Assembly (NCBI RefSeq): GCF_003334255.1
Contig: NZ_QOWU01000195.1
DNA: 725 nucleotides
From: Escherichia coli
Lineage (GTDB): Bacteria > Pseudomonadota > Gammaproteobacteria > Enterobacterales > Enterobacteriaceae
Strand: one strand, 5' to 3'
Every line of letters starts with the position of its first letter. Position 1 is the first letter of the stretch. Of this stretch, positions 1 to 725 are shown piece by piece. Under the pieces are notes generated by a model. It saw only the letters and a program-made list of their open reading frames with translations, ran no database searches and had not been told where the DNA came from. Both the position numbers and the translations under genes were made by a program.

Positions 1-635
1 ATACGCTTCCAGTCTTCGCGGTCGTTGTCGATAACTTCATTTTTTGCCCAGCGATGGATGCTGCCGTCAATGTTTCCGGCATCCACATCACCAGGCCAGA
101 GAGCGTAGGCCAGTTCGTCATCCAGTGTTTTCCATGTCTGCTTGTATTCGCGATGAATGGCAGCAATGACCGGGCTGATTTTTCCTGTTGAATTTTCAGT
201 GTGCTGTTGATTGGTTCTGGCGCGGGCGAGATCAACAACAGACGTGTATTTTCCGGTTTCCTTGCGTTCACCTTCGCGACGTTTTTTCCAGATGCGCATC
301 TCTGCCTGAATTTCGGGCCATTTGGCACCAGGCTTACATTTATGCTTAACCCACCCGATGGCATGCAGCTTAAGCTCCGGATACATGGCGTTAACTTCTG
401 GCATTTTCATCAACGCTTCAACAATATGTCCGTCGAATGTTGCCATGTCTTCCTGCAACAATTCCTGTGCGCTAATAACCATATCAACGGTGATGTTTTC
501 ACATGTGTCGAACTTAACCATGACAGCGTTCTGTACTTCAGGGGCCAGCTTGTCAAAAGTGACGTTCATCGGATCTGATTCAGTCTCAACCGGGACAAAG
601 GAAGCAGACTCCTCATCCCAGCGGTTTTCCTGCAT
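1..635 (-). CDS. Uncharacterized protein, N-terminal 211 codons; partial CDS whose C-terminus lies beyond position 1
   Basis: Seen in sequence: the minus-strand frame is open across 1..671, with the upstream in-frame stop (TAA, complement 674-672) inside the IS1 end. The first ATG is at complement 635-633. Translation: MQENRWDEESASFVPVETESDPMNVTFDKLAPEVQNAVMVKFDTCENITVDMVISAQELLQEDMATFDGHIVEALMKMPEVNAMYPELKLHAIGWVKHKCKPGAKWPEIQAEMRIWKKRREGERKETGKYTSVVDLARARTNQQHTENSTGKISPVIAAIHREYKQTWKTLDDELAYALWPGDVDAGNIDGSIHRWAKNEVIDNDREDWKR, then 2 nt of the next codon. Composition is protein-like (balanced, many D/E/K/R/W) with enterobacterial-style codons (ctg, gaa, aaa, ccg). Both + strand track ORFs are antisense to it and have shadow-ORF composition (F/C/H-rich). 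The start codon is uncertain: there is no strong Shine-Dalgarno before ATG 635 (only a weak GGA about 12-14 nt upstream), and there are alternative in-frame starts at TTG complement 662-660 (inside IS1) and ATG complement 569-567. No catalytic or nucleotide-binding motif recognised by eye. Confidence 0.7.
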   Translation of the reverse strand, partial: MQENRWDEESASFVPVETESDPMNVTFDKLAPEVQNAVMVKFDTCENITVDMVISAQELLQEDMATFDGHIVEALMKMPEVNAMYPELKLHAIGWVKHKCKPGAKWPEIQAEMRIWKKRREGERKETGKYTSVVDLARARTNQQHTENSTGKISPVIAAIHREYKQTWKTLDDELAYALWPGDVDAGNIDGSIHRWAKNEVIDNDREDWKR

Positions 636-648
636 ATATTCAGCATCC

Positions 649-671
649 GGTGATGCTGCCAACTTACTGAT
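649..671 (+). repeat. IS1 left terminal inverted repeat (IRL), 23 bp
   Basis: Sequence GGTGATGCTGCCAACTTACTGAT at 649-671. The partner IRR should lie about 745 bp downstream, outside the window, so the inverted-repeat pairing cannot be verified here. Confidence 0.85.
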
Positions 672-672
672 T
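660..672 (-). promoter_or_regulatory. IHF-like binding site inside the IS1 IRL
   Basis: Minus strand reads AATCAGTAAGTTG, against the IHF consensus WATCAANNNNTTR (one mismatch, G for A at position 6). Established knowledge: IHF binds within the ends of IS1. The match is by eye only. Confidence 0.4.
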
Positions 673-677
673 TAGTG

Positions 678-683
678 TATGAT
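678..683 (+). promoter_or_regulatory. Candidate -10 hexamer of the insA promoter (TATGAT)
   Basis: TATGAT is a 5/6 match to TATAAT, sitting 20 nt upstream of the insA GTG. No good -35 lies at 16-18 bp spacing (GCTGCC and CTGCCA are poor), consistent with a weak promoter overlapping the IRL and InsA operator as described for IS1. Exact promoter placement is not certain from sequence alone. Confidence 0.3.
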
Positions 684-692
684 GGTGTTTTT

Positions 693-698
693 GAGGTG
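693..698 (+). promoter_or_regulatory. Shine-Dalgarno (ribosome-binding site) for insA
   Basis: GAGG(TG) at 693-698, leaving a 5-7 nt spacer before the GTG start at 704. This is standard spacing. Confidence 0.6.
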
Positions 699-703
699 CT
701 CCA

Positions 704-725
704 GTGGCTTCTGTTTCTATCAGCT
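704..725 (+). CDS. insA: InsA (IS1 transposition repressor, also the N-terminal part of the InsAB' frameshift transposase); first 7 codons only
   Basis: GTG start at 704-706 followed by gct tct gtt tct atc agc, giving M-A-S-V-S-I-S, which matches the known InsA N-terminus MASVSISCPSC. The last base, 725, begins the next codon. Preceded by a GAGGTG Shine-Dalgarno. Confidence 0.85.

Follow-up and report, generated by a model that had tools for sequence, protein, structure and literature searches.

Structure of the Locus

The window analyzed here is the whole stretch of 725 nt from the Escherichia coli contig NZ_QOWU01000195.1 (assembly GCF_003334255.1). It contains the left end of an IS1 element and, adjoining it, a flank of 648 nt that belongs to a prophage exonuclease gene (table 1). 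The sequence-only reading, made earlier on the letters of this stretch, had recognized the IRL end of an IS1 element. This identification is borne out, since positions 649-725 on the plus strand agree at every base (100%) with nt 1-77 of IS1A as annotated in E. coli K-12. The terminal inverted repeat GGTGATGCTGCCAACTTACTGAT at the IS1 tip matches exactly from position 649 and is the same as in K-12 IS1A. In addition, the K-12 insA1 coding sequence (CDS) begins at nt 56 of IS1A, which is 55 nt inside the boundary, and this confirms that the insA-proximal end (IRL) faces the flank. The Shine-Dalgarno pairing of the insA start in the window amounts to −6.9 kcal/mol. The two IS1 ends share the insA start from nt 56, the IHF consensus, and the inward promoter-like site; there is no difference in the 77 nt seen, and the insertion site alone differs.

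The 648 nt of the flank correspond to nt 225-872 of an intact gene of 2,472 nt (WP_021565031.1, 823 aa), with 100% nucleotide identity in 12 complete E. coli genomes. In those 12 genomes, the intact gene is annotated as exonuclease or 3′-5′ exonuclease. Most of the 4,015 records with a match show an identity of 95% or more to the flank. The gene of strain G1/2 is part of a lambdoid prophage beside ompW, and the gene order is racR, dicB, DUF1482 (ydfD), exonuclease, xis, and int. Position 648 of the window is equivalent to gene nt 225, which places IS1 within the Trp75 codon (...LDSW(75)DAEYM(80)QENRW... in the protein), and the first 74 codons together with the start signals are separated from the 3′ part by IS1. 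The sole Pfam domain found in the intact protein is a C-terminal Rv2179c-like 3′-5′ exonuclease domain (PF16473, aa 641-813). This domain is located downstream of the IS1 cut, and the window ends near codon 291.

The pseudogene ydfE (b1577) of the Qin prophage in K-12 belongs to the same family, occupies the same place after dicB-ydfD, and has been inactivated by an insertion sequence too. The K-12 YdfE protein shows 98% identity over residues 76-257 (from Asp76). However, the 5′ part is kept in K-12 and the gene is truncated by IS2E, whereas here IS1 cut at codon 75 and it is the 3′ side that lies in the window.

Two ATG codons in the flank had been considered as starts of translation. The ATG at 635-633 had been taken as a possible gene start, and this assignment has to be given up: the codon is the internal Met80 of the 823-aa exonuclease, and IS1 entered at codon 75. 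The ATG at 569-567 is in the same frame, 22 codons further on. It had been proposed as an internal start under the name M23; it is in frame as proposed, but it is the internal Met102 of the exonuclease and lacks a Shine-Dalgarno sequence. We also noted an out-of-frame open reading frame (ORF) of 26 codons on the minus strand, from ATG 646-644 to TGA 568-566, whose stop codon forms an ATGA overlap with the Met102 codon. This overlap is almost certainly coincidental within the coding sequence.

Two further scans of the window concern RNA. A terminator-like stem-loop with a T-run was found at 262-279 on the plus strand, antisense to the exonuclease CDS. Such structures were expected 0.8 times from shuffled sequences, so that the single one found is at chance level and we rejected it. 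The Rfam scan of the window gave no RNA element; there was one sub-threshold chance match to a human lncRNA family.

Table 1. Features at the IS1-exonuclease junction, with positions in the 725-nt window
Feature	Position	Strand	Remarks
3′ portion of ydfE-family exonuclease gene, codons 75 to about 291	1-648	−	Open frame, leaves the window at position 1
ATG, internal Met102 of the exonuclease (formerly M23)	567-569	−	Shine-Dalgarno pairing −2.7 kcal/mol
ATG, internal Met80 of the exonuclease	633-635	−	Not the native start codon; Shine-Dalgarno pairing −3.3 kcal/mol
AT-rich flank GAATATATG, holding all −10 candidates	633-641	−	Coding for Glu78-Tyr79-Met80 of the exonuclease
−10 candidate TATATG	638-633	−	18-bp spacing; 4/6; lacks T(−7)
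−10 candidate ATATAT	639-634	−	17-bp spacing; 2/6; preceded by TG; lacks A(−11)
−10 candidate AATATA	640-635	−	16-bp spacing; 3/6; lacks T(−7)
−10 candidate GAATAT	641-636	−	15-bp spacing, unfavorable; A(−11) and T(−7) present; total 5.6 bits
Presumed 9-bp target-site duplication	640-648		TCAGCATCC (+), GGATGCTGA (−); inferred only
Perfect 7-bp inverted repeat across the junction	641-658		CAGCATC 641-647, GATGCTG 652-658
IS1A-type left end, nt 1-77	649-725	+	Holds left inverted repeat GGTGATGCTGCCAACTTACTGAT; the 768-bp element extends past the window
Inward promoter-like site CTGCCA-16-TATGAT	656-683	+	Sole match of the consensus scan; 8.7 bits
Outward-facing −35-like hexamer TTGGCA in IRL	657-662	−	5/6 to TTGACA; 8 bp from the IS tip
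IHF consensus match AATCAGTAAGTTG	660-672	−	Overlaps TTG of the outward TTGGCA
insA start (GTG 704-706), first 7 codons	704-725	+	Shine-Dalgarno GAGG 693-696; by alignment to K-12 insA1

Overlapping Sites at the IS1 End

The IS1 inverted repeat is bound by InsA/InsAB′ and IHF, and the strand opposite to the outward hexamer carries the −35 of the inward promoter. In the window, the outward TTGGCA, the inward CTGCCA-16-TATGAT, and the IHF consensus are three readings of the same few IRL bases. The −35 of the inward site shares bases with the TTGGCA of the opposite strand. A previous study described a very weak promoter of IS1 itself, which partly overlaps IRL and is repressed by InsA, and reported that both inverted repeats are bound by InsA (PMC12428005). 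The CTGCCA-16-TATGAT at 656-683 sits where this literature places the weak promoter of IS1 (PMC12428005). Meanwhile, the IHF consensus AATCAGTAAGTTG has one match in the window against 0.04 expected, and IHF sites have been described at both ends of IS1 (PMC11043490).

The sequence-only reading had singled out the TTGGCA at complement 657-662 as a −35 pointing out of the element. Its coordinates, its five matches in six positions, and its outward direction at 8 bp from the tip all proved exact. The IS1A of K-12 and the IS1F of strain 300033 have the same hexamer. Thus, as a piece of IRL that other IS1 copies also carry, TTGGCA says nothing specific about this site, and only the flank is specific.

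Promoter Likeness of the Junction

On the plus strand, positions 657-662 read TGCCAA, which gives TTGGCA on the minus strand; this is followed by eight IS1 bases, GCATCACC, and then by the flank, GGATGCTGAATATATG. When read outward after the IS1 bases GCATCACC, the flank is GGATGCTGAATATATGCAGG, with AATATATG at complement 640-633. The three hexamers that had been proposed as the −10 of a hybrid promoter (AATATA, ATATAT, and TATATG, at spacings of 16-18 bp and within complement 633-640) are located exactly where they had been placed. A fourth hexamer, GAATAT at 15 bp, had been overlooked. No hexamer with both A(−11) and T(−7) lies at 16-18 bp from TTGGCA. About 5% of random positions offer a −10 with at least four of six matches, A(−11), T(−7), and a spacing of 16-18 bp, and the junction offers none. 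In addition, the sigma-70 consensus scan found no promoter on the minus strand of the window.

Two other ways of reading the junction as a promoter were tried and rejected. For an extended −10, the dinucleotide TG precedes only ATATAT (17 bp), which is the worst of the hexamers and lacks A(−11), and thus the site is not rescued. For sigma-54, the TTGGCA does include a −24-like TGGCA, but GG instead of GC is present at −12 as judged by eye. A paper on sigma-54 that mentions 'IS1' uses labels of this form (IS##) for intragenic sites. In the uninterrupted gene, the position equivalent to the −35 is GCCCTC, and IS1 therefore raises the promoter likeness there.

The candidates were scored with a weight matrix of textbook consensus frequencies, for which standard reference promoters, and no documented IS1 hybrid promoter, gave the scale. 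On this scale, the best −10 in the flank scored 0.9 bits. This value was equalled or exceeded at 15.6% of 29,526 simulated IS1 insertions in background prophage DNA, which places it at the 84th percentile of random insertions, and at 14% of the positions within the exonuclease gene. The whole candidate reached 6.86 bits and ranked fifth on its own strand, while the best site in shuffled windows averaged 9.29 ± 1.60 bits; the combined match is thus no better than chance. For comparison, these reference promoters scored about 8.3 (bla P3), 9.9 (wild-type lac), and 13.7 bits (lacUV5) on the same scale. Taken together, the hybrid promoter suggested by the sequence-only reading keeps its outward −35 and loses the rest: it has no proper −10 at 16-18 bp, no scan match, and scores at chance level.

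The plus strand of the same AT-rich bases reads TATATT at 635-640. As a −10, it scored 7.1 bits, far better than any −10 of the minus strand, and it faces insA. The corresponding site, CTCATC-17-TATATT (612-617 and 635-640), has no −35 and totals 6.5 bits, which is about the level of the outward candidate and within chance. If this site were active, transcription would feed into insA. Since the window holds other chance matches of about equal score, among them this one on the opposite strand in the same AT-rich bases, such matches evidently arise readily.

Predicted Transcript and Its Translation

It had been expected that an outward transcript would begin at or just after ATG 635, and our predictions agree with this: for all of the −10 candidates, the predicted starts fall at 624-630 on the minus strand, past ATG 635. 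Leaderless translation from this codon had been offered as one way to express the flank, and for this promoter it can be dismissed. It would need a start at 635, and hence a −10 only about 9 bp after TTGGCA, which the geometry forbids, because the ATG lies within or adjoins the −10 hexamers and is upstream of every predicted start.

After any of the predicted transcription starts, Met102 is the first codon in frame that could serve as a start, and no in-frame ATG, GTG, or TTG occurs between 632 and 570. Neither Met80 (−3.3 kcal/mol) nor Met102 (−2.7 kcal/mol) is preceded by a Shine-Dalgarno sequence, as compared with −6.9 kcal/mol at insA and −6.3 kcal/mol at the exonuclease start. Furthermore, the junction faces no downstream gene with its own translation start, and the flank consists of the split gene from codon 75 onward.

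Junction Palindrome and Target Site

A perfect inverted repeat of 7 bp spans the junction, and as RNA it would fold into a hairpin of −10.3 kcal/mol. In the outward direction the flank, GGATGCTG, resembles the tip of IS1, GGTGATGCTG; about 1% of random positions show a match of this length. Since a target duplication of 9 bp is usual for IS1, the nine flank bases next to the element, TCAGCATCC on the plus strand and GGATGCTGA on the minus strand, were presumed to be a target-site duplication.

Distribution of the Junction and Sister Insertions

The exact junction of 37 nt had no match in the GTDB species-representative contigs (one genome per species) or in metagenome contigs. Meanwhile, a continuous match to the junction was found neither in 5,426 complete E. 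coli genomes nor in phage records. The absence of the junction from these genomes and contigs gives no sign of spread or fixation. In addition, the flank has no differences from intact alleles, and the insertion thus looks recent and private to its source strain.

A similar event was found in strain 300033 (NZ_CM128588.1), in which IS1F lies 11 bp upstream in the same gene, in the same orientation, and the annotation lists the two halves of the gene as pseudogene fragments. However, strain 300033 carries another variant of IS1, which is about 89% identical in the joined segment and used another target site. Thus, the two insertions are independent events. In strain 3045 (NZ_CP103570.1; positions 2310-3103 of the locus examined), the exonuclease gene is intact and has an IS1 25 bp upstream, on the other side of which lies the phage tail gene gpJ; the arrangement resembles an IS1-associated deletion that removed most of the prophage up to gpJ. 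The junctions of strains 300033 and 3045 have no good hybrid promoters, and the best total in strain 3045 is 4.0 bits.

In 17 of the 5,426 complete genomes, an IS1 is found near the 5′ end of the exonuclease gene, at a distance of a few hundred bp at most. The gene is faced by IRL in 13 of them (about eight distinct sites) and by IRR in four, and these genomes are partly clonal. The orientation bias was tried as a sign of selection and rejected, because 13 (about eight sites) against four are small numbers and the difference is not significant. Together with the IS2E in K-12 ydfE, the 17 genomes with IS1 suggest that insertion sequences have struck or truncated this exonuclease gene repeatedly.

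Discussion

We consider it likely that an ordinary IS1 insertion split the prophage exonuclease gene and that the junction is that of an IS1-disrupted pseudogene. The event would be a simple and probably recent insertion of IS1 into the coding sequence of a ydfE-family gene between dicB-ydfD and xis-int. The cut at codon 75 leaves the 3′ part without a promoter, a ribosome-binding site, and a start codon. Given the loss of the start signals and the lack of a usable translation start, the 3′ part of the gene is best regarded as a pseudogene fragment. The TTGGCA is probably part of the machinery by which IRL serves transposition and regulation and would face outward by chance, while the flank codons Glu78-Tyr79-Met80 would supply a −10 of chance-level quality. 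Outward initiation by sigma-70 is thus expected to be weak or absent, and it would have to compete with InsA, IHF, and the polymerase at the IS1 promoter for the same bases. Any outward RNA would probably start at about 624-630, would lack a usable translation start, and would be expected to have no biological role. Several points speak against this account. The −35 is good (5/6), TATATG matches at four of six positions at 18 bp, and GAATAT has both A(−11) and T(−7) at 15 bp; weak natural promoters of TATATG or GAATAT quality do exist. A truncated product is also not impossible in principle, the C-terminal exonuclease domain lying downstream of the cut.

If these points are given their full weight, TTGGCA with TATATG at 18 bp or with GAATAT at 15 bp could be a working sigma-70 promoter that starts at about 624-630, and translation, if any, would begin at Met102. 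We regard this as improbable. Besides the good hexamer at 8 bp from the tip, such a promoter is favored by a mechanism documented for IS1, by a flank that is AT-rich exactly at the place of the −10, by the lack of a −35 at that position in the uninterrupted gene, and by the C-terminal Rv2179c-like exonuclease domain that the product would retain. However, A(−11) and T(−7) do not occur together in any hexamer at 16-18 bp, the scan was empty, and the scores do not rise above chance. Nor is Met102 preceded by a Shine-Dalgarno sequence, and the predicted start falls only after ATG 635. InsA, IHF, and the IS1 promoter use the same bases, the junction was found in no other searched genome or contig, and the sister insertions show neither an orientation bias nor a recurrent good −10. 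It is very unlikely that a low level of firing from the IS1 −35 and the weak flank −10 yields a truncated exonuclease started at Met102 that retains the C-terminal domain. If this were true, IS1 would not have killed the prophage nuclease, which is normally repressed, but would have given it a low level of constitutive expression.

The 3′ fragment might also be transcribed from farther away, either by the early-left operon of dicB, ydfD, and the 5′ exonuclease part or by an antisense start inside IS1, with the transcript crossing IRL. An IS1 insertion is generally strongly polar whichever way it faces, and lysogens keep the early operons of their prophages repressed; we regard such read-through as quite improbable. 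The far side of the IS lies outside the window. For the operon, it can be said that the gene follows dicB-ydfD on the same strand in intact prophages and that, if the insertion is simple, the 5′ fragment would be directed toward IS1 at its IRR end, which is the case in strain 300033. In addition, transcription from outside can enter IS1 (PMC12428005). For the antisense start, IS1 has a promoter-like site, TGGAGC-18-TACACT, whose 7.1 bits are on a par with the score of the hybrid candidate, but this is at chance level. A different question is raised by the view that the junction bases serve transposition, in which the tip-like flank GGATGCTG guided the transposase through its likeness to GGTGATGCTG and made the site a local IS1 hotspot. 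We consider this doubtful, though it is compatible with a split pseudogene. The perfect 7-bp inverted repeat across the junction, the rarity of so long a match, and the IS1F of strain 300033, inserted independently 11 bp upstream of this GGATGCTG, speak for it, and early studies of IS1 and Tn9 targets reportedly noticed homology to the IS1 ends near hotspots. However, the observation is post hoc, it is a 1% event in a single case, only two insertions are known at the site, and the nearby junction of strain 3045 has no tip mimic.

The account that we prefer, a prophage gene split by IS1, can be set against what is known about promoters formed by this element. The sequence-only reading had stated that IS1 can form hybrid promoters with an IS-borne −35, and two papers (PMC8764528 and PMC9330008) agree, citing Prentki et al. 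(1986) for an outward −35 in the IS1 inverted repeat. According to these papers, IS1 activates a neighboring gene only with a properly spaced and functional −10 (PMC8764528 and PMC9330008). In ST131, three insertions of IS1 were tested, and transcription increased for afaA, decreased for osmB, and stayed the same for ugd (PMC8764528). The documented hybrid promoters (Prentki, Teter, Chandler, and Galas 1986; afaA in PMC8764528) share with our junction the element, an outward −35 near the tip, and a −10 supplied by the flank. However, the comparison, which is one by description, also shows a functional −10 and an intact gene in those cases, whereas our junction offers a −10 of chance quality in a flank taken from the middle of a coding sequence.

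The outward −35 and the hybrid promoters of IS1 have thus been known since 1986, and the present junction, with only a gene fragment in front of it, illustrates them poorly. Since TTGGCA is present in IRL by default, the hexamer alone at an IS1 IRL junction is no finding. The interest of such a junction depends only on the quality of the −10 in the flank and on an intact gene downstream. If the promoter at this junction does work, it would be one more case of a known kind, with the modest twist that a truncated prophage nuclease would be expressed.
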